Source of the DNA: Bacillota bacterium
GTDB lineage: Bacteria; Bacillota; Dethiobacteria; DTU022
Length of the DNA stretch: 64,000 nucleotides
Assembly (NCBI GenBank): GCA_033549065.1
Contig: JAWSUE010000012.1
Location: 5,222-69,221, forward strand
Direction of reading: 5' to 3'
The notes beneath the pieces were generated by a model, which did not search any database, was not told where the DNA came from, and saw nothing but the letters and a program-made list of their open reading frames with translations. This document shows, piece after piece, positions 16,257 to 32,974 of the stretch. Position 1 is the first letter of the stretch; each line of letters opens with the position of its first letter. Both the position numbers and the translations under genes were made by a program.

Positions 16257-16745
16257 TTGATCAATGAAACTGAAAAGAAAGTATATGATACCCTTGAAGG
16301 ACTTGGAATTAGTTATAAAAGGTACGAGCATCCGCCGGTTTTTACCGTTGATGAAGCAAAACAATACTGGCAGAATATTGAAGGAGCTCACTCAAAGAAT
16401 TTATTTTTAAGAAACAATAAAGGCAATCGCCATTACCTTGTAGTCCTGGAAGATACAAAAACTGCCGACATTGGTGGTTTATCTGAAAAGCTTGCATCCG
16501 GAAAGCTGAGTTTTGCTTCCGAGCGCCGCCTTATGGAGCATCTTGGTCTCGAAACCGGAGCTGTATCCCCCCTGGGGATAATCAATGATCTAAAAAAAGC
16601 TGTTACCCTCGTTCTTGATAAAGATTTAAAGCGACATGAAACTGTAAATTTTCACCCCAATGTTAATACGGCAACAATCAGTATCGCTTACAATGATTTT
16701 GAAAAGTTTCTAAAGCATTTTGGAAATGAGATAGTTTATATTTAA
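16257..16745 (+). CDS. YbaK/ProX-type aminoacyl-tRNA deacylase domain protein
   Basis: Similarity to the prolyl-tRNA synthetase associated/YbaK domain. TTG start with an AAGGAGAG SD. Confidence 0.65.
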   Translation: MINETEKKVYDTLEGLGISYKRYEHPPVFTVDEAKQYWQNIEGAHSKNLFLRNNKGNRHYLVVLEDTKTADIGGLSEKLASGKLSFASERRLMEHLGLETGAVSPLGIINDLKKAVTLVLDKDLKRHETVNFHPNVNTATISIAYNDFEKFLKHFGNEIVYI

Positions 16746-16787: not shown

Positions 16788-18581
16788 ATGAAGGAGTTAA
16801 AAAGCATACAGGGGTTTTTACAACAGGTAACCGGAGCTTTTGCCGGAGTGGTTGATATTGAGATCGGGGTTATCAGTAAACGCCTGGAAGTAATAGCCGG
16901 AAGCGGCTATTTCGAAAAAGAGGTTGGGGTGGTTTATGACGAAGGCTGCATGACTTCCAAGATATTGTCATCACCGCATAACGATTCAATATTAGTCGAA
17001 AATACCACTCATGCTGTATGCTGTGCCGACTGTGATTACTCTGCCAGATGTGACGTTCTTGCATTCATGATGATGCCCATCCTTTTTAATGAAGAAAAAA
17101 TAGGCAGTATATCATTGCTGGCTCTTACCGAACAGCAGCGTCGTAAACTGCTGAATCAGTATGAAAAAATGCAAAACTTCCTCAATAAACTATGTAATAT
17201 GATAACTATCTCCCTGAATGAAAAGAAAATGGAAAGCAGGATTACCAGCCTGATGAACCAGTTCAGGGATGTTATTAATTCTGTATATGAAGGGGTTATT
17301 GCCTTCAATTCACAGGGCAGAATAACCAATATCAATAATGCGGCCAGGCAGATTTTAAGTCTTAAGTTGGATAGTCACCTGGGTGAGCATATAAGCGTCC
17401 TCTTTCCTGACTTTAACCTGAATGAAGTTTTCAACAGGCAGGAAACTGAAGACGACAGCCAGTACTACGGTAAAGAGATTATCTATATCGATTCGGATAA
17501 CGAACAGCTGCGCCTTTATTATAATATTACACTTATGTATGAGGATGATCGCATTTCCGGGGCGGTAATATCTTTTCGTAAAAAAGAAGAAGTGGAGGAA
17601 ATGGCCAACCGGATTATCAAGGAAAACAAAAAAACAACTTTTTCGGGGATTATCGGTACCAGCAGTGAATTAAACGAGATAAAGAAAAAGATGAAACTGA
17701 TAGCCTCCACTGATTCAACAGTATTGATTCGTGGTGAAACCGGTACGGGAAAATCAGTATTCGCCCGGGCCATACACGAAGAAAGTCCGAGAAGGGGCAA
17801 GCCTTTTATCTCGATCAGCTGTGCGGCCATTCCTGCTCCCCTGCTGGAATCTGAACTTTTCGGTTATGAAGAGGGTGCGTTTACCGGCGCCCGTAAAGGT
17901 GGAAAACCCGGTAAGTTTGAAATGGCCCATGAAGGAACAATCTTTTTGGACGAGATTGGTGATATGCCCCTTGATTTCCAGGTTAAATTGCTCCATGTGA
18001 TTGAGAATAAAAATATTGCACGAATCGGCGGTGTTTCTTTCAGGGATGTAGATGTTCGCATTATTGCCGCTACCAACCGCAACCTGGAAGAACTGATCGG
18101 GGAAGGGAAATTCAGGGAAGATCTTTTCTATCGTATCAATGTTATACCTTTCACCCTGCCTCTTCTCCGGGATCGCAAGGATGATATTTTGCTCTTAATG
18201 CATCATTTTCTTGATTACTATTCAAAGCGTCTGAATAAAAATGTAATTGGTTTCCAGGATGATGCCAGGGAGGCCATGCTGGTTTACCCCTGGCCGGGGA
18301 ATGTCCGTGAGCTGGAAAATGCCATAGAATACGCCATAAATATCGAATCTGATTCCAAAATTTCAAGGAAGAGCCTTCCCGAAAAAATTACCAGGCATTA
18401 CGGAGTTGCTGATCCAGGTGGATTTGAAGATTTGACAATACTGGAGAAAAAGGCCATTAAAGCGGCTTTGCTTAAATACGGGAATACCACTTTTGGAAAA
18501 GAAAAAGCAGCATCAGCCCTTGGCATTAGCAGGGCAACACTTTATCGAAAACTTAAATCAATCCAGCAGGATGTTTCTTGA
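16788..18581 (+). CDS. sigma-54-dependent transcriptional activator (N-terminal sensor domain, PAS, AAA+ sigma-54 interaction domain, Fis-type HTH)
   Basis: Walker A GETGTGKS, the GAFTGA motif, an [15 protein letters not shown] segment and a C-terminal HTH_8. It is paralogous to the gene at 54622..56421. Confidence 0.9.
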   Translation: MKELKSIQGFLQQVTGAFAGVVDIEIGVISKRLEVIAGSGYFEKEVGVVYDEGCMTSKILSSPHNDSILVENTTHAVCCADCDYSARCDVLAFMMMPILFNEEKIGSISLLALTEQQRRKLLNQYEKMQNFLNKLCNMITISLNEKKMESRITSLMNQFRDVINSVYEGVIAFNSQGRITNINNAARQILSLKLDSHLGEHISVLFPDFNLNEVFNRQETEDDSQYYGKEIIYIDSDNEQLRLYYNITLMYEDDRISGAVISFRKKEEVEEMANRIIKENKKTTFSGIIGTSSELNEIKKKMKLIASTDSTVLIRGETGTGKSVFARAIHEESPRRGKPFISISCAAIPAPLLESELFGYEEGAFTGARKGGKPGKFEMAHEGTIFLDEIGDMPLDFQVKLLHVIENKNIARIGGVSFRDVDVRIIAATNRNLEELIGEGKFREDLFYRINVIPFTLPLLRDRKDDILLLMHHFLDYYSKRLNKNVIGFQDDAREAMLVYPWPGNVRELENAIEYAINIESDSKISRKSLPEKITRHYGVADPGGFEDLTILEKKAIKAALLKYGNTTFGKEKAASALGISRATLYRKLKSIQQDVS

Positions 18582-18759: not shown

Positions 18760-18775
18760 TGGCATGACTATTGCT
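18760..18775 (+). promoter_or_regulatory. sigma-54 (-24/-12) promoter TGGCAT-N5-TTGCT
   Basis: The GG and GC dinucleotides are spaced exactly as in the TGGCAC-N5-TTGCA consensus. It lies about 160 nt upstream of the BCCT gene. Confidence 0.6.
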
Positions 18776-18937: not shown

Positions 18938-20512
18938 TTGCAAAACGGAGGTAGTCTTTATACAAAACCAACATTTTTAATTGCTCTTATCGTAATGGTA
19001 ATCTTTGTTTTATTAGGTGCTGCTGCGCCGGAGGCTTTTGGTGTCGCAACAGGTAATGTTTTTAGCTATATGGTTGATTCTTGGGGCTGGTCGTTTATCC
19101 TTGGCACCAGTATCTTTCTTTTTTTGATAGTTTTCTTACTGCTAAGTCCTGTTGGTGAGATTAAACTTGGTGGAGACGATGAGAAGCCCGCATACAACAA
19201 TGAAGTCTGGTTTGCTATGCTCTTCAGCTGCGGCATGGGTATCGGCCTGCTTTTCTGGGGTGTATCCGAGCCGATCTGGCATTACATGTGGCCGCCGCTT
19301 GGAGAAGCTGGTAATGCCGGGACTATTCACGTGGCTATGCGCTATGCTTTCTTCCACTGGGGCTTCCACCCCTGGGCTATTTATGCAGTAGTGGCCGGCT
19401 CACTGGCCTACTTCTCTTACCGCAAAGGTTTGCCCATGCTGCTCAGTTCATGCCTGGAGCCTATCCTTGGCCGTAAAGGAATTGAAGGTCCCTGGGGTAT
19501 TCTGGTAAATATCATCGGTGTATTTGCCACCCTCTTCGGCCTGGCCACATCGTTGGGTCTCGGGGCTATGCAGCTTGGCGCCGGATTGGAAAGCCTTTTC
19601 GGTATTCCTAGCACTCCGGCAATTTGGGTTACTATTGTGATAGTTATAACTGCCGCAGCGGTTATCTCAACTTCGACCGGTATTGATCGCGGCATTAAGT
19701 GGTTGAGCCAGATTAATATCGTGGTAGCCGGTTTGTTGATGCTGTTGGTATTTATTGTCGGTCCGACCCTCTTTATTCTTAACCTTTTAACCCACTCTGT
19801 CGGTGATTATCTGCAGAATATCATCTACATGTCGTTCGGACTTGATGCTGCCGGAGAAAATACTGAAGGTTGGTATGGAGCCTGGACCATCTTCTACTGG
19901 GCCTGGTGGATTGCCTGGGCACCTTTTGTAGGTACCTTTATTGCCCGTATTTCGAGAGGCCGGACGATCCGCAACTTTATTGTCGGTGTTATGCTTGTTC
20001 CTGTTGCTGTCAGCGTTGTCTGGTTCTCCGTTTTTGGTGGTTCAGCCCTCTGGATGGAGCACTTTGGCGGTGGCGGTATCGGGGAAGCAGTATCAGCTGA
20101 TTCCGCGATGGGTTTCTTTGCCTTGTTGCAGAATCTGCCGTGGTCTGGCTTACTGATAGTTGTTGCCATGTTTTCGGTGGCAGTGTTCTTCATTACATCC
20201 TCAGACTCGGGGACCTATGTTAATGGTATGCTTACATCAGGCGGAGATCCTAACCCGCCTCTGCCCCTGAGGATTACCTGGGGAGTTCTTGAAGGAGCTA
20301 TCGCTGCCATTCTGCTCTTTACCGGCGGCGCCGGTGCTTTGGGTTCACTTCAGACAGCATCTGTTGTTGGAGGGTTTCCCTTCATGATTATTATGTTCCT
20401 GATGCTATACTGCCTTTTCAAGTCACTCTATGCAGAGATGCGCGATGGTACTCTACCTCTGGAGAAAAAGCGGATCCAGGATGCTCTGAAGGAATTGCAA
20501 GCTGGTAAATAA
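18938..20512 (+). CDS. BCCT family (betaine/carnitine/choline) transporter
   Basis: Twelve-TM profile and the BCCT signature region WTIFYWAWWIAWAPFVG. TTG start with an AAGGAGG SD. Confidence 0.9.
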   Translation: MQNGGSLYTKPTFLIALIVMVIFVLLGAAAPEAFGVATGNVFSYMVDSWGWSFILGTSIFLFLIVFLLLSPVGEIKLGGDDEKPAYNNEVWFAMLFSCGMGIGLLFWGVSEPIWHYMWPPLGEAGNAGTIHVAMRYAFFHWGFHPWAIYAVVAGSLAYFSYRKGLPMLLSSCLEPILGRKGIEGPWGILVNIIGVFATLFGLATSLGLGAMQLGAGLESLFGIPSTPAIWVTIVIVITAAAVISTSTGIDRGIKWLSQINIVVAGLLMLLVFIVGPTLFILNLLTHSVGDYLQNIIYMSFGLDAAGENTEGWYGAWTIFYWAWWIAWAPFVGTFIARISRGRTIRNFIVGVMLVPVAVSVVWFSVFGGSALWMEHFGGGGIGEAVSADSAMGFFALLQNLPWSGLLIVVAMFSVAVFFITSSDSGTYVNGMLTSGGDPNPPLPLRITWGVLEGAIAAILLFTGGAGALGSLQTASVVGGFPFMIIMFLMLYCLFKSLYAEMRDGTLPLEKKRIQDALKELQAGK

Positions 20513-20624: not shown

Positions 20625-21257
20625 ATGGCAGATTTTGAATCTTTAGCGGGAGCCATTATTGATTGTAATGCGGCAAAAGCCGGCGAGATAACCCAGCAGT
20701 TGGTTGATGAAGGCGTTAAGCCGACAGAGATCATCAACAAAGGGTTAATCAGCGGGATGAATGTGGTAGGAGACCGTTTCAAGAAAGGCGACATGTATGT
20801 TCCCGAAGTGATGATGGCTGCGAAGGCGATGCATGCAGGGATGAATATTGTGAAGCCCTTGCTGGTGGAAGGTGAGAGTTCATCGACCGGCAAGGTAATA
20901 TTGGGCACGGTAGCCGGGGACCTTCATGACATCGGTAAGAACCTGGTTGGGATGATGATGGAATCAGGTGGGATGGAAGTAGTGGACTTAGGTGTGGACG
21001 TTACACCTGAGAAATTTGCGCAGGCTGTCAAAGAGCACAAGGCGCAGGTAGTGGGCTTGAGTGCGCTGTTGACGACGACGATGCTGGCGATGAAAGATAC
21101 GATTGAAGTATTGAAGGAAGAAGGTTTAAGAGATTCGGTCAAGGTTATAGTTGGTGGAGCGCCTGTAACCCAGGACTTTGCCGATGAGATTGGCGCCGAT
21201 GGATGGGCACCTGATGCCGCTTCGGCCAAGGACCTTGCCCAGAAACTGGCCGGTTAA
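20625..21257 (+). CDS. cobalamin (B12)-binding corrinoid protein of methyltransferase systems
   Basis: A B12-binding N-terminal helical cap plus a Rossmann domain carrying the DxHxxG motif (GDLHDIGKN). Confidence 0.9.
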   Translation: MADFESLAGAIIDCNAAKAGEITQQLVDEGVKPTEIINKGLISGMNVVGDRFKKGDMYVPEVMMAAKAMHAGMNIVKPLLVEGESSSTGKVILGTVAGDLHDIGKNLVGMMMESGGMEVVDLGVDVTPEKFAQAVKEHKAQVVGLSALLTTTMLAMKDTIEVLKEEGLRDSVKVIVGGAPVTQDFADEIGADGWAPDAASAKDLAQKLAG

Positions 21258-21301
21258 TCTAACCGCTCTTAAACCAAGTGGAGAAAGGAGAATTTGGGAA
21301 A

Positions 21302-22756
21302 ATGAAAAGTTGCTTTAAAGCACAGGGATCAACTTTCCTGCAGGTTCTCTCGGACGACCAGTGCCGGCGGTTGGTAGCAGCGGCGATGGAAGTTTTGGAA
21401 AGGACCGGAGTTACATATTTAGACGATGAAGCAGTTGACAGGATGAAAAAAGCAGGTTGCTATGTAGACGGTAAAAGGGTTCGGATACCTTTTAAGCTGG
21501 TTGAGAAAGCCCTGAACACTGTTCCGAGAAAGGTTTCACTCTGCAACAGCAGGACCGGTAAAAGGGTTATGGAGATGGAAGGCGGGAATGCTTATTTCGG
21601 AACCGGTTCCGATACTCCCAATTTTATTGATCCTTACACCCAGGAGAGAATTAAAGCAAGCAGGAAGACTGTTCAAATGGCCACCAAGGTCATCGATGCA
21701 CTTCCCAATCTTGATTTTGTAATGTCCCTGGGTATTGTCCAGGATGTTCACCAGCTGGTATACGATCGCTACCAGTTCGAAGCCATGGTCCTGAATACTT
21801 CCAAGCCGATCGTTATTACTGCGATCGATGAGCCAGGCTATTCAGATATCATCAAAATGTGCGAGTTGATAGCCGGCGGGGAAGAGGAATTGAGGAACCA
21901 CCCGTTTCTTACTCTTTATGCAGAGCCGATTTCACCCCTGCAGCACCCCAATGATTCAGCGCGCAAGCTGATGTTGGCAGCGAAGAAGGGACTACCTGTT
22001 GTATATACACCGTGTATCATGGCCGGCGGAACAGTACCGGCTACACTGGCCGGAGCCATGGCTAACGGTCTGGCCGAAAGCCTGAGCGGTTTGGTTCTTA
22101 ACCAGGTGACATCGGAGGGCAGCCCGTTCATCATGGGCGGCGTATTTACCGTTATGGATATGCAGACCACCATATTCTCATATGGTTCACCGGAATTTGA
22201 TCTGATGATGGCTGCTCTGGCAGATATTCATCATTATCTTGATCTTCCCATGTTCGGCACCTGCGGATGTACTGATGCAAAAGTTGTTGACGAACAGGCT
22301 TTGATTGAGGGTGCAATGTCAATTCTGCTTACAGCTCAGGCAGGAGCAAACCTGAACCATGATGTGGGATATATTGAGCATGGTAATACAGCATCGCTTG
22401 AATACCTGACAATCTGTGACGATTTAATTGGTATTGCCCGCAAGATAGTCAGCGGTATTGAGGTAAGCGACAAAACCCTGGCCCTTGATGTAATTGACAA
22501 AGTTGGCCCGGGCGGACACTTCCTCGGTGAGGAGCATACAATGAAGCACTTCAAGGAGCAGACCTGGTATCCCCGCTTGTTTGAGCGCCAGATCTATGAA
22601 AATTGGGCTGCCGACGGTTTTAAAACTCTCTTTGATAAAGCCAATGATAAAGTAATAGATATTCTCGAAAATTATGAACCTGAGCCTCTGCCGAAAGATG
22701 TGCAGCAGAAGATCAAGGATATCATTGCCGAAGCAGAATCTAAATTGAACAAGTAA
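21302..22756 (+). CDS. MttB-superfamily methyltransferase, pyrrolysine-free paralog 2
   Basis: Full-length MttB-family similarity with no amber codon. I prefer the ATG at 21302, 11 nt after GAGAAAGGAG, over the RBS-less GTG at 21278. Confidence 0.85.
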   Translation: MKSCFKAQGSTFLQVLSDDQCRRLVAAAMEVLERTGVTYLDDEAVDRMKKAGCYVDGKRVRIPFKLVEKALNTVPRKVSLCNSRTGKRVMEMEGGNAYFGTGSDTPNFIDPYTQERIKASRKTVQMATKVIDALPNLDFVMSLGIVQDVHQLVYDRYQFEAMVLNTSKPIVITAIDEPGYSDIIKMCELIAGGEEELRNHPFLTLYAEPISPLQHPNDSARKLMLAAKKGLPVVYTPCIMAGGTVPATLAGAMANGLAESLSGLVLNQVTSEGSPFIMGGVFTVMDMQTTIFSYGSPEFDLMMAALADIHHYLDLPMFGTCGCTDAKVVDEQALIEGAMSILLTAQAGANLNHDVGYIEHGNTASLEYLTICDDLIGIARKIVSGIEVSDKTLALDVIDKVGPGGHFLGEEHTMKHFKEQTWYPRLFERQIYENWAADGFKTLFDKANDKVIDILENYEPEPLPKDVQQKIKDIIAEAESKLNK

Positions 22757-22783
22757 ACCTTCTACATATTGGTGGGATATATC

Positions 22784-24799
22784 ATGGCAAACCTGGCTTT
22801 AGGGATTGACACAGGGGGAACATTTACCGATGGTGTAATATTCGACCTGGAAAAAAAATCAGTAAAAGCCAAAACGAAAGTGGAAACGACCAGGCATAAT
22901 CTGACCTTTGCTGTAAACCGATGTCTAGATCAACTGATTGAAGCATTTCAGGAGAGCAACAGCGGACAGGTAGATATAGGGCAGATCAAGATGGTTTCCT
23001 TATCCACTACACTAGCCACCAATGCCATAGTTGAAGGTCAGGGAGCCGAGGTAGGTCTGATCCAGATCGGTTTTGAAGCCCGGCAGGACCTACCTACTCC
23101 CTATGTCGCAGTAGTACCGGGTGGTTGCAATATCAAAGGCAGGATCAGGGAAGAACTTAATCTCGAAGCGATCGAGAAGGCAATCCTGGATATGAAGGAT
23201 CATGTTGATGCCTTTGCTGTATCCGGGTACTTGAGTATCAGGAATCCGATCCAGGAAATGCAGGTTGTCGAGATGATCCAGCGGCTCACCGGTTACCCGG
23301 TTGTTGCAGCACACCAACTGAGTACAGATCTTGGAATGCATGAGAGAACTGTCACGGCAATTCTCAATGCCCGACTGATGCCCCTGATTACCGATTTAAT
23401 GAATTCTGTCAAGCAGGGTATGGAGAGGCTTAACATCGAGGCTCCGCTCATGGTGGTCCGGGGTGATGGCAGTTTGATCAGCGAAACGAAAGCCCGGGAA
23501 AAGCCGATCGAGACAATCTTGTCCGGACCGGCCGCCAGTATAATCGGAGCGTTGACGTTAACCGGTGTTGAAGAAGGCATTGTCATTGATATGGGAGGGA
23601 CCACCACTGATGTTGCCGTTCTCAGAAATGGCAGGCCTTCGCTGAATAAAGAAGGGGCGAGTGTGGGAGGATGGTTAACCAGGGTCAAGGCAGCCAAGAT
23701 CACGACTATCGGCCTTGGTGGAGACAGCCTCATCCAGGTATCGAAAAATGCAGTACTTTCAATCGGACCGCAAAGGGTATTTCCTTTATGTTGGATCGCT
23801 TCAAAGTACCCTTACCTGACTGCTGAACTGGAAGAAATCAGGCCGATTGACTATGCTATTATGGATACTCAGCCATCGATCATTTTGAACTACATCAGGG
23901 ATCCGCTTAATATTAAACTCACCGCAACCGAAAAGCAAATAATAGATTTGATCAAAGACGGGCCTCATACACTCCATTACATCAGCCGGAAATTGCAGAA
24001 AGAGATTGACCTTTTGCCCTGGCATCGACTGGTTAATGTTGCTTCCGTTCACCGGGCGTCGTTGACTCCAACAGATATTTTGCATTTCCAGGGCAAACTG
24101 GAATTATGGGATATGAAAGCTGCTGAATTGGGAACGGCAATGCTTGCAACCCGTTACCGTCAGTCACCAGCTGAATTTGCTGAAAAAGTTTTGGAAGAGA
24201 TTCTTTTTAAACTTGCTGCGCTAACCCTGGACCGTCTTCTTGAAGAAGAGGGTGTAGTCCTATCACTTGCGGATGAAAAAGCTGCCAACTATATGCTGAG
24301 GAAGATAATTAGCAGAGATAATGGAGATACTAATAGTCAGGTTAAATTTTTTACCAGTCTGAATCATCCCATTGTAGCAGTTGGAGCTCCTGTCGATGCT
24401 TATTTTCCTGAACTGGCCGACAGGCTTCAGGCAAAACTTTTTCTGCCACAGTATGCCGATGTGGCCAATGCTGTTGGAACTGTCAGCGGTCAGGCAGTTG
24501 AAAGGATCTCAATATTAATTAAGCCCGGAGAGGGTGGAGGTTTTTTGGTTCACAGCCCTTACCAGAGAGAATTTTTTATGATCTTTGATGAAGCAGTAGA
24601 TTATGCATACCGAGAAGGTAAAAAATATGTTTATGAACAGGCTTCTGCAGGAGGAGCGGTTGAGATAGAAACATTGGTTGAAAGACAGGATCGCTACAGC
24701 AAGATTACTTCTACAGCAGAAGGAGATTCAATTGACAATAAACTCTTTATTGAAAGTATAATAGAGATATCAGCCGTTGGTAAACCCTGGAGCGGCTAA
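22784..24799 (+). CDS. hydantoinase/oxoprolinase (ASKHA ATPase) family protein
   Basis: The N-terminus LALGIDTGGTFTDGV is typical of hydantoinase-A/acetone-carboxylase-beta ATPases. About 670 aa. I prefer the ATG at 22784. Confidence 0.7.
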   Translation: MANLALGIDTGGTFTDGVIFDLEKKSVKAKTKVETTRHNLTFAVNRCLDQLIEAFQESNSGQVDIGQIKMVSLSTTLATNAIVEGQGAEVGLIQIGFEARQDLPTPYVAVVPGGCNIKGRIREELNLEAIEKAILDMKDHVDAFAVSGYLSIRNPIQEMQVVEMIQRLTGYPVVAAHQLSTDLGMHERTVTAILNARLMPLITDLMNSVKQGMERLNIEAPLMVVRGDGSLISETKAREKPIETILSGPAASIIGALTLTGVEEGIVIDMGGTTTDVAVLRNGRPSLNKEGASVGGWLTRVKAAKITTIGLGGDSLIQVSKNAVLSIGPQRVFPLCWIASKYPYLTAELEEIRPIDYAIMDTQPSIILNYIRDPLNIKLTATEKQIIDLIKDGPHTLHYISRKLQKEIDLLPWHRLVNVASVHRASLTPTDILHFQGKLELWDMKAAELGTAMLATRYRQSPAEFAEKVLEEILFKLAALTLDRLLEEEGVVLSLADEKAANYMLRKIISRDNGDTNSQVKFFTSLNHPIVAVGAPVDAYFPELADRLQAKLFLPQYADVANAVGTVSGQAVERISILIKPGEGGGFLVHSPYQREFFMIFDEAVDYAYREGKKYVYEQASAGGAVEIETLVERQDRYSKITSTAEGDSIDNKLFIESIIEISAVGKPWSG

Positions 24800-24863: not shown

Positions 24864-25658
24864 ATGATTATTATCGGAGAATTGATTAATTCAACCCGCA
24901 AGGCGATCAAGAAAGCTATAGACGAGCAGGATGTGGCCTATCTTCAGGATCTGGCCCTGAAACAGGAAGAGGCGGGAGCAGACTTCATTGATGTCAATGC
25001 CGGAGCATATGTCCATGATGAGGCAAAACACCTGGTCTGGTTAGTGGAGAAAGTCCAGGAGGTCGTTAGCAAACCTCTGGCTCTTGATAGTCCTGATCCG
25101 AAAGCTTTGCAGGAAGCATTAAAAGTACATAAAGGTGTACCCATGATTAACTCAATAAGCCTCGAGAAAGAACGTTACTCACAGTTGGTTCCCCTGGTCA
25201 AGGAAGCAGGAACTGAAGTGATTGCTCTCTGCATGAGCGATGAAGGTATGCCTGAAACCGCCGATGACCGGCTGGATGTAGCGAAAAGGCTTCTTGACAA
25301 CCTCGATAAAGATGGAGTTGATCTGACAAAGGTATTTCTAGATCCACTGATCAAACCGGTTAGTGTCAATGGAGAATATGGGCCGCAGGTCTTGGAAGCT
25401 ATTGAGAAAATAAAAAACCTCGAATCCGGCTGCCATATCACCAGCGGGCTGAGCAATATTTCTTTTGGTTTGCCACACCGCGCTCTTTTGAACCAGGCAT
25501 TTATCGTGCTTGCCATGGGACGCGGGATGGATTCAGCGATAGTTGATCCGCTGGACAAGAAGAAGATGAGCCTGGTAAAAGCAGCGGAGGTTATTCTAAA
25601 TCTCGATCCCTATGCCATGAATTATCTGAAGGCGTCCCGTGCCGATAAACTGATTTAA
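24864..25658 (+). CDS. methyltetrahydrofolate:corrinoid methyltransferase (MtrH/MtgA pterin-binding family)
   Basis: Starts MIIIGELINSTRK, typical of MtrH-family and methyl-THF:corrinoid methyltransferases, followed by a pterin-binding TIM-barrel. The upstream TTG-initiated extension carries no homology. Confidence 0.8.
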   Translation: MIIIGELINSTRKAIKKAIDEQDVAYLQDLALKQEEAGADFIDVNAGAYVHDEAKHLVWLVEKVQEVVSKPLALDSPDPKALQEALKVHKGVPMINSISLEKERYSQLVPLVKEAGTEVIALCMSDEGMPETADDRLDVAKRLLDNLDKDGVDLTKVFLDPLIKPVSVNGEYGPQVLEAIEKIKNLESGCHITSGLSNISFGLPHRALLNQAFIVLAMGRGMDSAIVDPLDKKKMSLVKAAEVILNLDPYAMNYLKASRADKLI

Positions 25659-25709: not shown

Positions 25710-27143
25710 GTGATAAGAATGATCAATCGCGATTTGAAAGCTGTAGACTACCTGAAGAGCGAAGATCTGGAAAAAATTCACCAGGCTACATTAACCGTAC
25801 TGGAGAAGAACGGTATAGAGTTTTACTCCCAGGAAGCAAGGGATATATTGAAGAAAAATGGAGCAAAAGTAGAAGGTGAGAGAGTCTTTTTCCCGCCTGA
25901 ACTGGTCATGGAAAAGATTGCCCTGGCTCCGTCTGAGTTTACTCTTCATGCCAGAAATCCTGAGAAAAATGTTGTTGTCGGTGGCAATAATACTGTTCAT
26001 GCACCAGGTTACGGTTCTCCATATGTGATGGATTATGTTCAGAACGCCAGGAGAAATGCTAACTATGATGACTATATAGCTTTTACAAAGCTCGCCGGCC
26101 GGAGTGAAAACCTTGATGTTGTCGGAGGCGTTCTTGTTGAGCCAAATGATATCCCCGATCATCTGAGACACGCAAAAATGTTTCATGCTGCTGTAAAATA
26201 TACAGACAAGTGCCTGATGGGCAGCGCTATGGGTAGTAAAAAAGCTCAGGAAACTATCGAGATGGCTTCGATTATATACGGGGGGATCGATACCGTTCGT
26301 ACAAACCCCTGCCTGATCTCACTGATCAATACCAATAGTCCCCTGGAATTCGATTCCCGAATGCTCGATGCGCTGATGGTTTATGCCCGTAATAATCAGC
26401 CGGTAATTATTGCTGCTCTGGCGATGACCGGCACAACATCGCCGGTTACCCTGGCCGGTTCACTGGTCCAGCAGGCGGCGGAGATCCTCTCTGGTATCAT
26501 ATTTGCCCAGATGGTCAGCCCCGGGACTCCGGTGGTCTTCGGTTCCGCGTCAAGTATCGTCGATTTACGGACAGGCAACCTGGCCATCGGCAGCCCCGAA
26601 TCAGTAAAGATGTTCTCGGTCATAGCGCAGTTAGCAAGATTCTACGGACTGCCATCACGCGGCGGTGGAGCGCTTACTGATGCCATAATTACAGACAGCC
26701 AGAGCGGTTATGAGTCAATGATGGTTTTAATGAATACAATTCTCAGCGGGACAAACTTCATCCTACACTCTGCCGGGCTGCTCGAGAATTATATGACCAT
26801 GTCATATGAAAAATTTGTTATAGATGATGAAATGCTCGGGATGGTTAAGTCATATGCAGAGGGTTTCCCGATCAATGAAGATACCCTGGCTGTTGATACG
26901 CTGCTTAGGGTTGGCAGTGGAGGCAATTTCATTGCAGATGAACATACCTTCAATCACATGCGGGATATGCGCCTGCCGTTTATCAGTGCTAGGATTAATT
27001 ATGCCGGGGCAACAGATTTGACTGATACTCCCCAGCGTGCGCATGAATATGTTAAATCGGTTCTGCAGGATTTCCAGAATCCACCCTTGGATGAAAAAGT
27101 TGAAGCTGAACTTGACAGCTATATTGAGAAGCTGAGCAAATAG
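25710..27143 (+). CDS. MttB-superfamily methyltransferase, pyrrolysine-free paralog 3
   Basis: 477 aa with MttB-family similarity throughout and no amber codon. Confidence 0.85.
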   Translation: MIRMINRDLKAVDYLKSEDLEKIHQATLTVLEKNGIEFYSQEARDILKKNGAKVEGERVFFPPELVMEKIALAPSEFTLHARNPEKNVVVGGNNTVHAPGYGSPYVMDYVQNARRNANYDDYIAFTKLAGRSENLDVVGGVLVEPNDIPDHLRHAKMFHAAVKYTDKCLMGSAMGSKKAQETIEMASIIYGGIDTVRTNPCLISLINTNSPLEFDSRMLDALMVYARNNQPVIIAALAMTGTTSPVTLAGSLVQQAAEILSGIIFAQMVSPGTPVVFGSASSIVDLRTGNLAIGSPESVKMFSVIAQLARFYGLPSRGGGALTDAIITDSQSGYESMMVLMNTILSGTNFILHSAGLLENYMTMSYEKFVIDDEMLGMVKSYAEGFPINEDTLAVDTLLRVGSGGNFIADEHTFNHMRDMRLPFISARINYAGATDLTDTPQRAHEYVKSVLQDFQNPPLDEKVEAELDSYIEKLSK

Positions 27144-27317: not shown

Positions 27318-27347
27318 TTGACATTTGTTGCTTGCACAGGCTATAAT
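27318..27347 (+). promoter_or_regulatory. sigma-70-type promoter TTGACA-N18-TATAAT
   Basis: Consensus -35 and -10 hexamers about 60 nt upstream of the cyclase-family gene. Confidence 0.55.
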
Positions 27348-27409
27348 TTTTTCAGATATCTCTTGTTTAAAGCTTTATGCTTCATAAATCTTACTATGTG
27401 GAGGTTGCC

Positions 27410-29074
27410 ATGAGTAAAAACATGATTGATTTGCTCAGTAAAGCAAAATGGTATGACCTGACTCAGCCTCTAAGCATTTTTACTCCCCCCTGGCCTGGTG
27501 AGATGCCGCTGCAGGTTCATTTTTTCAAGCGGGTCACCGGTTCTTATCATGGTGGGCAGGGCGCAAACGGTCAGTTGATCGAATGGTCGAATAATACGGG
27601 GACCCACCTTGTCGGACCGAGAGCTTTTCATTCGGGCATGAAGACGATAGCCGATATCCCCCTGGAGGACATCTGCGGCGAAGGTGTTATTGTCGATATT
27701 TCAGCTGATGTATCTGATTACAGTCTTTATACCCCGGAAATGATCGAGAAACGGGTTACAGTAAAAGAAGGCGATATCCTGCTTATTAACACCGGCTACC
27801 ATAAATATACCTTTGATCAGCCGGATGTTAAAAACCCGAAAGGGCAGGGAGGAATTGATAACAAGGAATTTTCCTACCTGGTTCGCCACCCCGGTCCCGC
27901 ACCCGGATTTTTTGAATGGGCTTTGAAAAAGAAACTGAAAGTTATTGGCGTTGACTGCGGTTGTGCCGAACACCCAATGAATACCAATATCCGCTATATG
28001 CATGCAGCAGAATTCAAGAAAGCTGAAGATAAACTGAAGGAAACTCATGGTAAAACCTGGGATGAAATGTTCCCGGTCGATGAGTATTATAAGCTGACTC
28101 ATCAAACTATGCCCAAAGCCGGGTTGCTTCTGGCCGAATCTTTGGGGGGGCAGATTAAAGAGCTGAACAATCAGCGAGCCTGGATCATAATCGGGGCACT
28201 ACCTTTCGTAGAAGTGGAATCAGCCTGGTCAAGGGTTGCCGCGGCTAAGGCTCCTGATGGAGTAAGCGAAGATGAGTTTTTTGCAGCGATGAATAAAGCA
28301 AAACTTTATGATCTCTCAGTACCCTTCAGTGTGCAGACACCACAGTGGGCAAACTATATCCCACTTATTGCTCATTACACCAAGCGTGTAGGCGGGCAGT
28401 ATTTCGGCTTAGGTCGTAATAATGCCCACTGTAAGTGCAGCTTCCACATTGCAACCCACATGGATGGTGAACCTCACTTCTACATTAACGGAAAAACGAT
28501 TGGTCAGACCCCCTTTGAATACTGGATCGGCCCTGCCGCTATTGCCGATATATCAGAAATGGTCAGCGATACCAGTGTATACAGCCCCGAGATGATCGAA
28601 TCGGTAGTTGATGTAGAAGAAGGAGACATCCTTATCGTCAAGACCGGATATGGGAAATATGGCTGGGCTAGCCCTGATTCGGATGAATTCAGGTACATGA
28701 TCCGCCATCCAGGTCCTTCGCCGGACTTCGCTGAATGGTGCATGAAGAAGAAGATCAAGTGGCTCGGCATTGACTGTGTGGCCATGGAACACCCGATGAA
28801 TACGATCCAGCGTATCTTCCATCCGAAGACCTTTGAAGAAGCAAACCGGAAACTGAAAGAGAAGTACGGTAAGGACTGGGATGAAATGTACCCGCTGGAC
28901 AAGTACTACCAGGATATGCACCTCAATCTCTTCCCGCATGGTGTTGTCCATGCCGAAAACCTGGGCAAGGATCTAAATGATCTGGAAGGTGGCCGTTACT
29001 TCCTCGGCTGTTTCCTCCAGCGAGGAATGGAACTTGCTTCATGCTGGGCACGTTTTATAGCCTGGAAAGAGTAA
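27410..29074 (+). CDS. tandem-duplicated cyclase-family (kynurenine formamidase-like, PF04199-type) metal hydrolase
   Basis: Two homologous halves of about 270 aa (for example HPGPAPGFFEWALKKKLKVIGVDCGCAEHPMNT versus HPGPSPDFAEWCMKKKIKWLGIDCVAMEHPMNT). A GGAGG SD lies 5 nt upstream of the ATG at 27410. Confidence 0.7.
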   Translation: MSKNMIDLLSKAKWYDLTQPLSIFTPPWPGEMPLQVHFFKRVTGSYHGGQGANGQLIEWSNNTGTHLVGPRAFHSGMKTIADIPLEDICGEGVIVDISADVSDYSLYTPEMIEKRVTVKEGDILLINTGYHKYTFDQPDVKNPKGQGGIDNKEFSYLVRHPGPAPGFFEWALKKKLKVIGVDCGCAEHPMNTNIRYMHAAEFKKAEDKLKETHGKTWDEMFPVDEYYKLTHQTMPKAGLLLAESLGGQIKELNNQRAWIIIGALPFVEVESAWSRVAAAKAPDGVSEDEFFAAMNKAKLYDLSVPFSVQTPQWANYIPLIAHYTKRVGGQYFGLGRNNAHCKCSFHIATHMDGEPHFYINGKTIGQTPFEYWIGPAAIADISEMVSDTSVYSPEMIESVVDVEEGDILIVKTGYGKYGWASPDSDEFRYMIRHPGPSPDFAEWCMKKKIKWLGIDCVAMEHPMNTIQRIFHPKTFEEANRKLKEKYGKDWDEMYPLDKYYQDMHLNLFPHGVVHAENLGKDLNDLEGGRYFLGCFLQRGMELASCWARFIAWKE

Positions 29075-29140
29075 TCTCAAAAAGAAGGGCGGGGGAGCGC
29101 CCCGCCAAGAGGTGGATTTAAGCCTCAAAAATTTATATAT

Positions 29141-29175
29141 AACCGGTTGGATCTACTCAACCGGTTTATTTTTTT
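29141..29175. terminator. bidirectional terminator hairpin AACCGGTTG...CAACCGGTT
   Basis: The stem overlaps the stop codon of the minus-strand gene. It is followed by T8 on the plus strand and by an A/T-rich stretch with T5 on the minus strand. Confidence 0.5.
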
Positions 29176-30316
29176 TCAGTTCAACTGTATCATCGTTGGC
29201 CTGCTTTTTCATTGTTCGGCTAATATAAAATGTAATCATGTAATAAACAGCTAAACCGGCAAGAAATCCAAATGCCATGTTGGTTAAAACTGAAACTAAA
29301 ACAGTTACAGCCAGGACAATCATATTCCAGTTTAACGAAACATCTCTTGAAAATTTAATCAGTTCTATACCAACCATAAACATCATTGCACCGATAATTG
29401 CCATGGGGAATAGTGCAAAAAGGCCGGCGATTGAAGTGGCCAGTAAAATACCCATAGCAATTTCGATCATGCCTTCAATAATATTTGCTCCTCCGGTTCG
29501 GGCTCCGAAGTAATATTGGCCAGCCAAACCACCGGCTCCATGACATAAAGGCATGCCGCCTAAAAAAGGAAATAGAATATTCATTAATCCCATATTCAAA
29601 GATAAACGTCCTTCGCCAACTGACCGGCCAGGAAAGTATGAGTTTATCAAAGATGATGTTGATATCACAGCGTTGGTTGCTGTCAGCGGTATTTGAGCAA
29701 ATCCAGCTAAAAGCATGGTTTCCCAGACTTCAATAGGCTTAAAGAAAGTCATGGAGGGCAGTGAATATTCCAGGCCGCTCAAATCAGTTAAGTCTCCCCT
29801 GAAGTACATGATTGCTATACCTAAAACCACCAGAGTAACAGCTGCCGGCATGTAACGATTATTACGAAGCAGTAGTATAACTATAACCGATATGATGCCG
29901 AGCAACCAAAAATCAGAGACCATTTTTAGCGCTTCAATTGCCAGTAATCCTCCGAGAGCAACCTGAATCCCGCGTATTACAGATTTCGGAGTAAACCGGG
30001 CTATATGCTTCATTAACCCTGTTAGTGCAAAAATAATCCAGACAATTCCCATCCCAAAGCCTGAAGCATAGACCATTGATGGAGTCCAACCCTGGGCTAT
30101 GGCGACAACTGCCAAAACTTTCATCGGTTCGATTGGCATGGGCAATTTATATATCAGCCCTGTAATGATATTGGCCAGACCTATAGTTACCAGTAAACCT
30201 GAAGGGTTTAAACCACATACTACAATATAACCTATGGCGAGAGGTATTAATGTTCCAAAATCTCCCATAGCCCCTGATAGTTCTCTTAAATTAAATTCAT
30301 ATGCTCCGATTTGCAT
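29153..30316 (-). CDS. putative molybdate/tungstate (or sulfate-type) transporter, MOT1/SulP-related membrane protein
   Basis: About 11 TM helices with an N-terminal ELSGAMGDFGTLIPL motif. It is co-directional with and immediately downstream of tupC. Confidence 0.45.
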   Translation of the reverse strand: MQIGAYEFNLRELSGAMGDFGTLIPLAIGYIVVCGLNPSGLLVTIGLANIITGLIYKLPMPIEPMKVLAVVAIAQGWTPSMVYASGFGMGIVWIIFALTGLMKHIARFTPKSVIRGIQVALGGLLAIEALKMVSDFWLLGIISVIVILLLRNNRYMPAAVTLVVLGIAIMYFRGDLTDLSGLEYSLPSMTFFKPIEVWETMLLAGFAQIPLTATNAVISTSSLINSYFPGRSVGEGRLSLNMGLMNILFPFLGGMPLCHGAGGLAGQYYFGARTGGANIIEGMIEIAMGILLATSIAGLFALFPMAIIGAMMFMVGIELIKFSRDVSLNWNMIVLAVTVLVSVLTNMAFGFLAGLAVYYMITFYISRTMKKQANDDTVELKKNKPVE

Positions 30317-30333: not shown

Positions 30334-31119
30334 TTAGTAAATCATACGACCTTCAACGAAAGCTTTTGTTTGTTCTGTTTTCGGAGTTTTAAATATATCT
30401 TCTGTTTTACCTGTTTCTATAATTTTACCCTGATTGATGAATATCACATGATTGGCAATCCTTTTGGCCTGGAAAATATTATGGGTTACCATCATGACAG
30501 TAATTGATTTAGACAAATTTAACTTACAGATTAATTTTTCAATAAGTTCAACATTAATAGGGTCAAGGTTAGCTGTCGCTTCATCCAGTAATAATAGTTC
30601 GGGCTCAAATGCTATAGCCCTGGCAACTGCAACTCTTTGTGCTTCTCCCCCTGATAAAGTGTCGGCTCTTCTTCTGGCCAGTTCTTGTAAACCAACCTGG
30701 TCCAGTAGAGTAGTAACTCGTTCATGAATTTCTTTATGCGGGTAGTTTCTCGCTTTTAATCCATATGACACGTTATTATAAACACTATCTTTGAAGAGTA
30801 AAGTTTTTTGAAAAACCATTGACATTTTACGCTGTATAGTGAGACGATCCTGACCATTTGAAGGCAAGGGGCTGCCTTTATAAAGGATGCTTCCCTGATC
30901 CGGCATGGTGAGCAGGTTGATTATCCGTAGAAGGGTGCTTTTTCCGGCTCCGCTGGGACCAATAATTCCATAAATTTTACCCTTCTGAATTGTGAGATTA
31001 TTAATACTCAATACTTCTTTATCGTATTTTTTTATTATATTGGCTAATTCAAATAAATTATTATCGGGATTAATTGTTTTTGCCCCCCTTCTGAATTGTA
31101 TAGAGTAAAGAATTGACAA
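30334..31119 (-). CDS. tupC: ABC transporter ATP-binding protein (tungstate TupC-like)
   Basis: Walker A GPSGAGKST, signature LSGGEAQRV and Walker B LLLLDE. TTG start. The 50-nt overlap with tupB makes the start uncertain. Confidence 0.75.
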   Translation of the reverse strand: MSILYSIQFRRGAKTINPDNNLFELANIIKKYDKEVLSINNLTIQKGKIYGIIGPSGAGKSTLLRIINLLTMPDQGSILYKGSPLPSNGQDRLTIQRKMSMVFQKTLLFKDSVYNNVSYGLKARNYPHKEIHERVTTLLDQVGLQELARRRADTLSGGEAQRVAVARAIAFEPELLLLDEATANLDPINVELIEKLICKLNLSKSITVMMVTHNIFQAKRIANHVIFINQGKIIETGKTEDIFKTPKTEQTKAFVEGRMIY

Positions 31120-32808: not shown

Positions 32809-32974
32809 GTTTTTTCCTCCTGAATTTGATTTGCTATTACTTTTATTGTAGGACAAGAATTAATTTATATTACCCTTTCACCGGTCTGCAGCGGTTATTT
32901 GTTATACTGCCTCCTTTCCGGGTTGTATATTTTGTAATAAAGGTTGTGAACATGCTCTATCATTCAATGGTCTT

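Follow-up and report, generated by a model that had tools for sequence, protein, structure and literature searches.

A hydantoinase-fold ASKHA ATPase linked to corrinoid methyltransferase systems, a candidate ATP-dependent accessory factor

Methylotrophic methanogenesis runs on corrinoid methyltransferase systems, and so does the demethylation by which acetogens in sediments and the gut use glycine betaine, choline and carnitine. In abundant marine bacteria such systems were recently shown to serve the breakdown of glycine betaine and the synthesis of methionine. Each of these systems relies on cobalt kept as Co(I), and to our knowledge the RamA/RACE proteins are the only ones established for this task. 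The operon described here, found in a 64-kb window (the whole stretch of DNA that was analysed), raises the question of what a hydantoinase-like ATPase does among corrinoid methyltransferase genes where no RamA-type activase is visible. We favour, with a probability of about 0.5, an ATP-dependent accessory factor that would maintain or activate corrinoid-dependent methyltransferase systems, rather than an enzyme of substrate catabolism.

The locus and its operon

The focal gene occupies an open reading frame at 22769–24799 on the forward strand and, from the ATG at 22784 (22784–24799), encodes 671 amino acids (73.5 kDa) beginning MANLALGIDTGGTFTDG. It is a real gene, identified by Pfam, NCBIfam, predicted structure and motifs as a corrinoid-methyltransferase-associated HyuA-fold ASKHA ATPase. 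The operon, all on the forward strand, runs from a sigma-54 regulator through a BCCT transporter, a corrinoid protein, an MttB, the HyuA-like ATPase and a methyl-THF methyltransferase to a further MttB. The first of these genes encodes a PrdR-like, sigma-54-dependent PAS/AAA+ activator (16788–18581; Pfam Sigma54_activat 4e-69; NCBIfam PrdR-like), which is likely the operon regulator and is also found 5′ of the operon at three related loci (L002, L003 and L005). The BCCT betaine/carnitine/choline transporter (18938–20512; Pfam BCCT 3e-184) scores 613.7 bits against the NCBIfam glycine betaine BCCT model, under the cut-off of 650. It is followed by an MtgC-like corrinoid protein with B12-binding_2 and B12-binding domains (20625–21257; TIGR02370 223 bits, cut-off 215) and by the first MttB-superfamily methyltransferase I, a non-Pyl, uninterrupted reading frame (21278–22756; Pfam MTTB 1.5e-100) that ends 27 nt before the focal gene. 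After a further 64 nt comes the pterin-binding methyl-THF:corrinoid methyltransferase (MTII; 24864–25658, 264 aa; Pterin_bind; PRK07535 341 bits, cut-off 259), whose start at ATG 24864 is inferred from 264-aa orthologues and the sequence. The second MttB-superfamily methyltransferase I (25710–27143; Pfam MTTB 3.4e-153) keeps its position at L002–L007 and L011. A double 'cyclase' amidohydrolase-type gene lies 3′ of the operon.

Upstream of the transporter gene, a −24/−12-like element (TGGCAT-N5-TTGCT, 18760–18775, forward strand) was considered as a putative sigma-54 promoter and rejected; it departs from the consensus at one position, the window holds four sites that match as well where 2.3 are expected at random, and it is statistically no different from chance and suggestive only.

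None of the 48 non-overlapping window reading frames of at least 150 aa encodes RACo/DUF4445, DUF1638 or Hydantoinase_B, and a tblastn search of all frames of the window with RACE and DUF1638 proteins as queries returned nothing (best E 0.26), so that the lack of a visible RamA-type activase noted in the original prediction extends from the operon to the full 64 kb.

A hydantoinase-type ATPase without its partner

The focal protein was compared with the HyuA-type alpha subunits of N-methylhydantoinase (9H03), caprolactamase (CapA, 6YRA), acetone carboxylase (beta, 5SVC/5M45), acetophenone carboxylase (alpha/gamma, 5L9W) and 5-oxoprolinase, with which it shares the overall fold over ~670 residues, the N-terminal Pfam domains and the ATP-binding motifs. 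Hydant_A_N spans residues 6–167 (E 9e-30) and Hydantoinase_A residues 188–330 (E 5e-34), the latter covering profile positions 1–145 of 291 only. Unlike in the HyuA-type subunits, the Hydantoinase_A profile finds no match for its second half, nor does Pfam recognise the C-terminal domain, with no family matched in residues 331–671. The AlphaFold model (pLDDT 85.2) resembles HyuA-type alpha subunits across its full length in Foldseek (E 5e-29 to 8e-23 and TMq 0.56–0.65 against 9H03, 5SVC and 6YRA), and this agreement of Pfam and structure bears out the predicted ~670-aa hydantoinase-like ASKHA ATPase within a corrinoid methyltransferase operon. Three ATP-binding motifs, D9-x-GGT-x-TD16, D269-x-GGTT-x-D276 and G312-GDS315, are invariant among 41 diverse family members. 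The protein has three cysteines and no CxxC motif, as the original reading of its N-terminus had suggested; no Fer2 or Fer4 domain was matched by Pfam, and no cysteine is conserved in the 41-member comparison.

In HyuA+HyuB enzymes, HyuB (Hydantoinase_B) is the subunit or fused domain that performs hydrolysis or carboxylation. The focal ATPase, unlike the HyuA-type subunits, is without this partner: no HyuB was found in the neighbours of 90 related loci (recurrent or 500–900-aa neighbour clusters scanned), and the family has no fused extra domain that we could find other than DUF1638. The HyuA/ASKHA ATP site is kept while the HyuB partner is lost. The profile search of hydantoinase A/B against RACE families likewise returned HyuA-type domains, no HyuB and no RACo domains. 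None of the curated equivalog cut-offs (CapA, ApcA, ApcC) is reached: CapA comes closest with 123 bits where 1000 are required, and ApcA scores 66 where 1250 are. With no HyuB among the scanned neighbours and with these scores, true hydantoinase/oxoprolinase identity is rejected. Members of the family are currently annotated as 'hydantoinase/oxoprolinase' or 'N-methylhydantoinase A'.

It could still be supposed that the protein is a HyuA-class small-molecule enzyme, phosphorylating, ring-opening or carboxylating the methylated substrate, the demethylated product or a cofactor precursor, acting either in the absence of HyuB or alongside a partner that has escaped recognition. Such a role would suit the full-length structural likeness to N-methylhydantoinase, acetone carboxylase beta and caprolactamase alpha (TM 0.55–0.65) and the sequence similarity to the same enzymes in residues 1–331. 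Enzymes that phosphorylate small molecules share this fold, and the substrate of the focal ATPase may be a small molecule; other chemistries are found among small proteins of hydantoinase-A-like type, for example MfnF, itself a weak NCBIfam match. The cyclase gene following the operon might be read in the same direction, but it is preceded by a perfect sigma-70 promoter of its own and occurs in only five loci. We regard a small-molecule enzyme of this kind as quite improbable. Identity to the HyuA-type subunits is 15–17%, and whereas those subunits belong to lactam, ketone or hydantoin catabolism, the context of this family is corrinoid methyl transfer. The absence of HyuB among scanned neighbours, the DUF1638 fusions described below and the unrelated substrates that the family accompanies (quaternary amines with MttB, methanol with MtaB, and URO-D-type systems) all disfavour the ring-opening or carboxylating enzyme offered as one option in the original prediction.

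Association with corrinoid systems across the family

The focal ATPase belongs to a distinct subfamily of ~1,150 clusters at 50% identity, whose members are linked to corrinoid systems by genomic context, gene fusion and expression. The order corrinoid protein–MttB–[HyuA-like]–MTII is kept in all 10 close loci, and in Firmicutes the placement of the HyuA-like gene between MttB and MTII is conserved; MttB, corrinoid protein or MTII flanks 13 of the 16 members that make up the tree's Firmicute clade. The homologues retain synteny with mttB and corrinoid-protein genes and do not group with bona fide hydantoinases, either of which findings could have counted against the idea had it gone the other way. 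Other methyltransferase families are found beside members elsewhere: URO-D/MtaA-type methyltransferases neighbour family members at five loci (L040, L041, L043, L080 and L087), and MtaC-MtaB does so in Methanosarcina (L045) and Methanolobus (L052). The Methanosarcina order, MtaC-MtaB-x-x-HyuAl-HyuAl-Msr-type regulator, matches the MA4391–MA4396 region (PMC11619418), in which the family genes MA4395 and MA4396 lie 3′ of mtaCB. All archaeal members in the sample come from methylotrophic methanogen lineages. At four loci a protein resembling the MetH reactivation domain (profile against 1J6R, E 2e-4) is encoded directly 5′ of the family member.

The density of corrinoid-system genes at increasing distance serves as an internal control; expressed per 10 kb of flanking sequence, it is 1.94 in the first 1 kb and drops 9-fold, to 0.22, at 7.5–10 kb. 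A corrinoid-system gene is the immediate neighbour of, or fused to, the family gene in 23 of 77 species loci. Against the link, no corrinoid gene occurs within 10 kb at 46 of 80 species-level loci, among them several from methanogens and those of the Rhizobium, Sulfitobacter and Oceanospirillaceae groups, and no cobalamin riboswitch was found near family members at seven proteobacterial loci. Taken together, the synteny, the archaeal clade, the DUF1638 fusions, the RACE and MetH-like neighbours, the density gradient and the co-induction described below link the family as a whole to corrinoid methyl transfer in general.

DUF1638 (PF07796) is fused to, or encoded beside, the HyuA-like ATPase in many lineages. 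Among the 150 closest cluster representatives, 17 (~11%) are 830–984 aa long, and the eight of these that were scanned all carry an N-terminal DUF1638; a separate DUF1638 gene adjoins the family gene at five loci (L014, L015, L027, L028 and L089). DUF1638 is a different protein from the ATPase, an alpha/beta domain with invariant C8, C68 and C90 that might, judging from these residues, bind metal. Together with a RamA-like protein it is genetically needed for a B12-dependent split methionine synthase (PMC5764234), and it is co-induced with MtgBCD (PMC12478193). In the fitness screen of Price et al., the reactivation genes named for methionine synthesis are the RamA-like gene and DUF1638 alone; no hydantoinase-like gene is reported, and the family factor may be dispensable for that system or missing from the strain used.

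Co-occurrence with RACE and expression

One reading, raised in the original prediction, is that the protein stands in for the missing RamA as a self-sufficient, Fe-S-free reductive activase drawing electrons from a general low-potential donor. Like RACE it is an ASKHA ATPase, and no RACE lies within 10 kb at any locus of the window's clade or anywhere in the 64-kb window. Our literature search on hydantoinase/oxoprolinase and corrinoid found only Holland et al. 2022, where the gene is listed as 'Unknown'. In that paper, clusters of the A. woodii/D. hafniense type and the S. ovata/Frackibacter type differ in architecture, and the key to its Fig. 5 has symbols for both RACE and HydA; the former type would appear to carry RACE, and the latter HydA, in a similar operon slot. 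As a general account this replacement fails. Bona fide RACo-type activases share clusters with family members at 7 of 80 species loci (L027, L041, L043, L044, L052, L080 and L089), and strain DCMF, whose operon matches that in the window, encodes homologues of the reactivation proteins MecG/MecH elsewhere in its genome, one of them only five genes past the operon. The absence of a redox cofactor site and of any family-conserved cysteine also argues against it, and we consider it distinctly unlikely. Because RACE is found together with the family and is not excluded by it, an additional ATP-dependent accessory is indicated and not simply a RamA substitute.

Expression is available for two organisms. 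The DCMF orthologue (Ga0180325_114738, 668 aa, listed as 'Unknown') shows an LFC of −7.2 towards glycine betaine in proteomics. SPO3739 of R. pomeroyi, taken as an orthologue from shared MsrA synteny and annotation and not from its sequence, rises by 3.5 to 4.8 log2 units on carnitine, choline and GBT (proteomics); with the Sulfitobacter orthologue as query, the 120 matches listed held only Sulfitobacter-like proteins of at least 74% identity, and not SPO3739. Despite the lack of linkage to the genes for MtgC, RamA and DUF1638, it rises in parallel with these proteins, and this joint induction of RamA, DUF1638 and SPO3739 is a further point against replacement of RACE. Many proteins share co-induction on methylated substrates. 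The suggestion of an ATP-dependent corrinoid-system partner of a different kind is supported by these data, together with the synteny, the DUF1638 fusions and the several methyltransferase I families.

A proposed role in corrinoid maintenance

The anatomy of the protein, the lack of HyuB in the scanned neighbourhoods and the ties to corrinoid systems by genome context, fusion and expression are observed; that the corrinoid protein is the physical target of the focal ATPase, and the purpose that ATP serves, we infer. In the mechanism we propose, the ATPase would bind the operon's corrinoid protein, or its complex with the methyltransferase, once the cobalt has become inactive Co(II), and ATP binding, hydrolysis or autophosphorylation would impose a conformational change permitting reduction to Co(I). 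As the ATPase itself has no Fe-S site, the electron would be supplied by a separate donor; ferredoxin/flavodoxin, a RACE protein or a module associated with DUF1638 could each serve.

Alternatively, ATP might drive not reduction but the loading, exchange or release of the corrinoid on apo or damaged corrinoid protein, making the protein a cofactor-handling chaperone like DdrA, EutA or GlmL/MutL. The CobW-type metallochaperone genes in four clusters (L041, L045, L052 and L060) and the co-induction of cobalamin-synthesis proteins in R. pomeroyi would agree with this, as would the fact that a co-occurring RACE already handles the reductive step. The weak but recurrent similarity to Pfam MutL and NCBIfam GlmL at the ASKHA motifs points the same way, but is confined to generic phosphate motifs (27 bits against 475). 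Corrinoid proteins of the operon's type can regain their cofactor in vitro unaided, and the fused or adjacent partners (DUF1638, RACE and MetH-reactivation-like proteins) are tied in the literature to reductive reactivation and not to loading; a loading chaperone therefore seems unlikely.

If the accessory-factor reading is true, a second widespread dedicated ATPase family would change the in vitro reconstitution and genome annotation of corrinoid pathways, operons without RACE would be explained, and DUF1638 would be given a partner. The family is present in tractable models, namely M. acetivorans (MA4395/MA4396) and R. pomeroyi (SPO3739).

Comparison with known corrinoid activators

Like RamA/RACo/RACE (COG3894; Raco_middle and RACo_C_ter, formerly DUF4445), the focal protein is an ASKHA-fold ATPase encoded alongside corrinoid proteins and methyltransferases, and its proposed role, bringing Co(II) back to Co(I) with the help of ATP, is by analogy the same. 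Unlike RACE, whose Fe-S domain is an N-terminal 2Fe-2S or, in RamA, a C-terminal 4Fe-4S, it has neither an Fe-S domain nor RACo domains, Pfam matching neither Raco_middle nor RACo_C_ter (DUF4445). Membership of the RACE family is ruled out by the comparison of structures (TM 0.14 against 3ZYY) and of profiles, in which hhalign against six RACE proteins aligned only the 36-residue phosphate-1 motif (probability 22%).

The ASKHA accessory proteins of adenosylcobalamin enzymes (GlmL/MutL, EutA and DdrA) are ATPases of the same superfamily that also service B12 enzymes, but they serve radical adenosylcobalamin enzymes via cofactor exchange, and not methyl-transfer corrinoid proteins. The focal ATPase does not belong to GlmL/MutL: its matches to PF13941 (27.1 bits, residues 6–58 only) and NF040745 (26.9 bits, equivalog cut-off 475) reflect only generic ASKHA phosphate motifs.

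A further parallel is the methyltransferase activation protein (MAP), which, as purified from Methanosarcina barkeri, is reportedly a 60 + 30 kDa heterodimer without chromophore. HyuA-like proteins of 70.8–73.5 kDa and DUF1638 proteins of 25.0–30.7 kDa, which also occur as natural fusions, may fit the large and small subunits; DUF1638 has three invariant cysteines, whereas MAP is said to be chromophore-free. According to PMC5007285, MAP (Daas et al. 1996) is an ATP-dependent, autophosphorylating activator of MT1, the methanol corrinoid methyltransferase, that forms an acid-stable O-phosphate and whose gene was never assigned. The phosphate-2 motif of the focal ATPase, DMGGTTTD with an invariant Thr, is compatible with such autophosphorylation but is not evidence of it, and the tie to MAP through a family gene near the methanol methyltransferase in Methanosarcina is one of genomic proximity only. 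That the HyuA-like ATPase and DUF1638 together are MAP is a tentative identification, which we think considerably more likely to be wrong than right. If it holds, the family would be a second class of ATP-driven corrinoid activators, independent of RACE or cooperating with it and spread over methanogens, acetogens and marine Roseobacter, and the ~30-year gap in the identity of MAP may be closed.

Gene, operon and window content

The HyuA-like gene appears in the window's ORF list as a single long ORF (22769–24799, +; first ATG at 22784) and encodes a 671-aa, 73.5 kDa protein with the N-terminus MANLALGIDTGGTFTDG. Pfam and NCBIfam annotation gave the order sigma-54 activator (16788–18581), BCCT transporter (18938–20512), MtgC-like corrinoid protein (20625–21257), MttB-family methyltransferase #1 (21278–22756), HyuA-like gene (22784–24799, +), pterin-binding methyl-THF:corrinoid methyltransferase (MTII) and MttB #2 (25710–27143), followed by a double 'cyclase' protein (27377–29074, +). 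The real MTII start is the ATG at 24864, 64 nt beyond the HyuA-like stop. The original prediction had set the gene inside a corrinoid methyltransferase operon without a visible reductive activase, and both points were confirmed, with the flanking genes as it gave them. Pfam detected no RACo/RamA-type activase, DUF1638 (a B12-reactivation-linked domain) or Hydantoinase_B (HyuB) among the window's 48 non-overlapping ORFs of 150 aa or more, and tblastn with six reductive activator (RACE) and seven DUF1638 sequences gave no match in any frame of the window (best E 0.26). A sigma-54-like element at 18760 was statistically no different from chance expectation.

An Rfam PYLIS_3 ('pyrrolysine insertion sequence mttB') match (22268–22367, +; 45.9 bits, gathering 38) sits within the uninterrupted, non-Pyl MttB #1 ORF and starts near codon 330, which we take to be roughly the position of the Pyl codon in Methanosarcina MttB; it is probably retained coding-sequence homology and not a functional element. 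A third MttB-superfamily paralog (8532–9998, +) lies outside the operon without its own corrinoid protein and adjoins a class IV aminotransferase gene (10065–10916). Directly upstream of the sigma-54 activator is a YbaK/ProX-type aminoacyl-tRNA editing-domain protein (16257–16745, +), whose position is conserved in four loci (the window and related loci L002, L003 and L005), and 14608–16140 (+) encodes a 510-aa protein that consists of 12 or more MORN repeats and matches no NCBIfam model. The 'cyclase' protein carries two PF04199 (arylformamidase-like) domains, has a promoter of its own that matches the sigma-70 consensus perfectly (27318–27347) and terminator-like hairpins (~29090–29166), and also lies 3' of the operon in the closest relatives (L005, L006, L007, L011). 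Two tandem Moco/tungsten riboswitch aptamers (33018–33143 and 33429–33553, both −; 65.8 and 61.7 bits) lie upstream of a molybdate/tungstate-type ABC transporter (31897–32856, 31070–31768, 30334–31119) and an MFS_MOT1 gene (29153–30316); the same transporter type is found 3' of the operon in L005–L007. A tRNA-Sec gene (35999–36088, +; 72.3 bits) would fit the presence of selenoprotein glycine/sarcosine/betaine reductases, which strain DCMF has, but the window showed none.

Protein class and subfamily

Pfam assigned residues 6–167 to Hydant_A_N and 188–330 to Hydantoinase_A, the latter covering only the first 145 of 291 profile positions, and gave no match for residues 331–671; weak matches to MutL, BcrAD_BadFG and FtsA are generic ASKHA signals. 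The top NCBIfam model, caprolactamase alpha, scored 123 bits against a cut-off of 1000. PDB sequence matches (caprolactamase 6YRA, 1e-26; NMHase 7HK5, 3e-21; acetophenone and acetone carboxylase subunits) were likewise limited to residues 1 to ~331. A confident AlphaFold model built with 22 homologs (pLDDT 85.2, pTM 0.81) matched HyuA-type subunits over the full length (9H03, 5SVC, 5M45, 5L9W, 6YRA; E 5e-29 to 1e-21, TM 0.54–0.65, identity 15–17%), whereas its likeness to RACo (3ZYY) is at the generic ASKHA level only (TM 0.14). In profile–profile comparison with six bona fide RACE proteins, only a 36-residue phosphate-1 motif aligned (probability 22%). RACE identity was rejected on these two grounds; taken with the structural matches, they place the protein, as modelled, in the HyuA structural class as a deeply divergent member.

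Across 41 aligned family members (33–66% identical to the window protein), the ATP-binding motifs D9-x-GGT-x-TD16, D269-x-GGTT-x-D276 and G312-GDS315 are invariant and no Cys is conserved. The window protein has three Cys in total and no CxxC, bearing out the earlier remark that its N-terminus lacks a Cys-rich ferredoxin motif.

By sequence, the window protein is assigned to a subfamily that is both large and distinct. When 1.84 billion cluster representatives were searched exhaustively with HMMER, 9,876 matched at E ≤ 1e-3, of which 1,154 reached E ≤ 1e-30; the best 150 of the 9,876 were mostly near-full-length matches that include the C-terminal half (identity 34–66%). A word-indexed search gave at least 8,000. 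A neighbour-joining tree resolved 86 members into three groups: a Firmicute clade holding the window protein, in which MttB, corrinoid protein or MTII genes flank 13 of 16 members; an archaeal clade of methylotrophic methanogen lineages only, bar one contig labelled Bifidobacteriaceae, with tandem paralogs common; and a mixed bacterial clade that holds the fusions, the RACE-linked loci and, nested within it, aerobic proteobacteria without local corrinoid genes. The Bifidobacteriaceae-labelled contig (L032), whose member falls within the Methanomassiliicoccales/Methanomethylophilaceae clade, has neighbour clusters in common with L025 and L060 and is probably a mis-binned archaeal contig. Tandem paralog pairs occur in the methylotrophic methanogen loci L025, L045, L060, L065 and L076, with three copies in L065 (Methanolobus), which suggests a hetero-oligomer by analogy with the acetophenone carboxylase alpha/gamma subunits.

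Genomic context

Six lookups yielded ten close-relative loci (identity 55–72%), and the synteny with mttB-family and corrinoid-protein genes proved conserved throughout: all ten share the order corrinoid protein, MttB, HyuA-like gene, MTII, usually with a BCCT transporter and a second corrinoid protein/MttB pair upstream and one more MttB downstream. In none of the ten does a RACE gene lie within 10 kb.

A family-wide profile scan, with each GTDB species represented by one genome, gave 80 loci from Firmicutes, Halanaerobiales, Methanosarcina, Methanolobus, Methanomassiliicoccales, Methanomethylophilaceae, Chloroflexota, Spirochaetota, Armatimonadota, Desulfobacterota, Acidobacteriota, Brocadiaceae, and Alpha- and Gammaproteobacteria. 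Neighbouring ORFs were called, clustered and labelled by purpose-built HMMs, with key clusters verified by Pfam. At least one corrinoid-system gene lies within 10 kb in 34 of the 80 loci and none in 46; in 23 of 77 it is fused or an immediate neighbour. The distance profile served as internal control: corrinoid-system genes per 10 kb of available flank fall from 1.94 (<1 kb) through 0.93, 0.57 and 0.32 to 0.22 (7.5–10 kb). The accompanying methyltransferase I varies, with MttB-family enzymes in many phyla, URO-D/MtaA-type enzymes in L040, L041, L043, L080 and L087, and the methanol enzyme MtaB in Methanosarcina L045 (1.7e-237) and Methanolobus L052. L045, with its regulator confirmed, matches the M. 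acetivorans layout mtaCB2 ... 'predicted hydantoinases MA4395 and MA4396' ... msrDE, the wording of Methanosarcina papers (e.g. PMC11619418). MA4396 acquired a frameshift in one population of an evolution experiment that served its authors as a genetic screen for loci controlling methylotrophic growth (bioRxiv 10.1101/2025.05.05.652248).

No cobalamin riboswitch was found near seven proteobacterial members. In Roseobacter-group and Rhizobiaceae loci (L063, 8874–9932; L078; L085; L079) the family member adjoins GST and QueG, the cobalamin-dependent epoxyqueuosine reductase, which could be another B12 client or mere conserved local synteny. Aldehyde:ferredoxin oxidoreductase genes recur no more than 10 kb from family members in five sources (window, 50792–52546, −; L019; L062; L072; L080); these organisms may have a tungsten-dependent aldehyde metabolism as well, or the proximity may be accidental.

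Links to reactivation proteins

Seventeen of the 150 closest representatives are 830–984 aa long, and all eight scanned carry an N-terminal DUF1638; 16 fusions align over this domain with invariant C8, H36, C68, D89 and C90. Stand-alone DUF1638 genes adjoin the ATPase in L014, L015, L027, L028 and L089, lying between ATPase and MTII in L014 and L015 (Halanaerobiaceae, 50% identity to the window protein), and one is 8 kb from a member in Methanolobus L065. DUF1638 has no recognisable solved structural relative. In Phaeobacter inhibens, a split B12-dependent methionine synthase needs DUF1638 and a RamA-like protein, with which DUF1638 co-distributes (PMC5764234), and in Ruegeria pomeroyi DUF1638 is induced together with MtgBCD (PMC12478193).

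A canonical RACo-type activase (neighbour cluster c7; Fer2, Raco_middle and RACo_C_ter by Pfam) shares the gene cluster in seven loci (L027, L041, L043, L044, L052, L080, L089), and strain DCMF has mecG/mecH reactivation homologs, one just five genes past the operon. Because RACE co-occurs, the ATPase is not merely a RACE substitute; the suggestion that it stands in for a missing RamA-type activase was not upheld as a general rule, and a self-sufficient RamA replacement is improbable. CobW-type GTPases are present in four of the clusters.

In L018, L022, L043 and L047 the gene directly 5' of the ATPase belongs to a further family (c23), whose profile matches 1J6R, a stand-alone reactivation-domain homolog (E 2e-4), more weakly 1MSK and 3BUL, and Pfam below threshold. 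These proteins, ~230 aa long and akin to the MetH reactivation domain, have an invariant C-x2-C close to the C-terminal end and are candidate components of corrinoid reactivation.

Expression evidence

The window operon is of the same type as the glycine-betaine cluster published for 'Ca. Formimonas warabiya' DCMF, ordered CoP-210, MtgB-485, CoP-210, MtgB-488, '?' Unknown-668 (Ga0180325_114738), MtgA-265, MtgB-471, OpuD, OpuD, in which Ga0180325_114738, listed as 'Unknown', is among the most glycine-betaine-induced proteins (LFC −7.20; PMC9768040). In the literature searched, the placement of such a gene in glycine-betaine clusters is drawn once, in Fig. 5 of that paper, apparently as 'HydA', and goes undiscussed.

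The R. pomeroyi proteome (log2 differences relative to succinate + ammonium; Dataset S1, PMC12478193) shows significant differences for 'Hydantoinase/oxoprolinase family protein SPO3739' under each of the four methylated-substrate conditions (carnitine +4.12, choline +3.53, GBT +4.77, succinate + GBT +4.83; 23–27 peptides vs 1–4), alongside MtgB1 (+6.39), MtgC (+4.23), RamA (+4.23), DUF1638 (+3.95) and MtgB2 (+3.89) on GBT; the authors neither label nor discuss it. A search with the Sulfitobacter member gave only Sulfitobacter-like proteins among the matches listed. SPO3739 is likely an ortholog of the family because SPO3740 is MsrA and the Sulfitobacter L085 member directly precedes MsrA and MsrB. 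Its co-induction would be expression evidence independent of synteny with corrinoid genes.

Proposed function

No HyuB was found among recurrent neighbour clusters or scanned HyuB-sized (500–900 aa) neighbours. All solved HyuA-type subunits work with HyuB, separate or fused, and the systems beside which the family is found handle chemically unrelated substrates; both facts make it improbable that the protein works as a classical hydantoinase, oxoprolinase, lactamase or carboxylase. They also argue against the ring-opening or carboxylating enzyme acting on substrate or product that had been envisaged; a small-molecule enzyme is the least probable reading considered. A true hydantoinase/oxoprolinase was rejected on the missing HyuB among scanned neighbours and the score of 123 bits against 1000. 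In this family the ATP site of the HyuA scaffold is intact, the catalytic partner has been lost as judged from the neighbours scanned, and there is no redox-cofactor site.

Genomic, fusion and expression evidence couples the family to corrinoid proteins, methyltransferases and three kinds of reactivation-associated proteins. This supports the original prediction's other idea, an ATP-dependent partner of a different kind, as regards the partnership; the target and the use of ATP are what we infer. With a probability of about 0.5, the ATPase would act on the corrinoid protein or its complex, where ATP would power a change of conformation that renders Co(II) reducible; RACE, a DUF1638-linked module or ferredoxin would provide the electrons. 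A chaperone for cofactor loading or exchange is the main alternative, unlikely but ahead of both the RamA replacement and the small-molecule enzyme; the remaining probability falls to functions outside these four readings.

Comparison with known systems

The methyltransferase activation protein (MAP) of Methanosarcina barkeri is reportedly a heterodimer of ~60 + 30 kDa without a chromophore, and to our knowledge its gene has never been assigned. According to a 2016 review, MAP was purified in 1996, autophosphorylates with ATP to give an acid-stable phosphate and activates the methanol corrinoid methyltransferase MT1, with no further published work (PMC5007285). HyuA-like proteins of 71–73 kDa encoded beside mtaCB in Methanosarcina, DUF1638 proteins of 25–31 kDa and natural fusions of the two in other lineages fit MAP, whereas the three conserved Cys of DUF1638, a possible metal site, speak against it; identification of MAP with this pair is speculative, and we consider it rather doubtful. 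No proposed function for the family was found in the literature searched. ATP-dependent accessories for corrinoid proteins are already known as a kind; what would be new here is such an accessory built on the HyuA fold, with DUF1638 as its partner and RACE alongside it.
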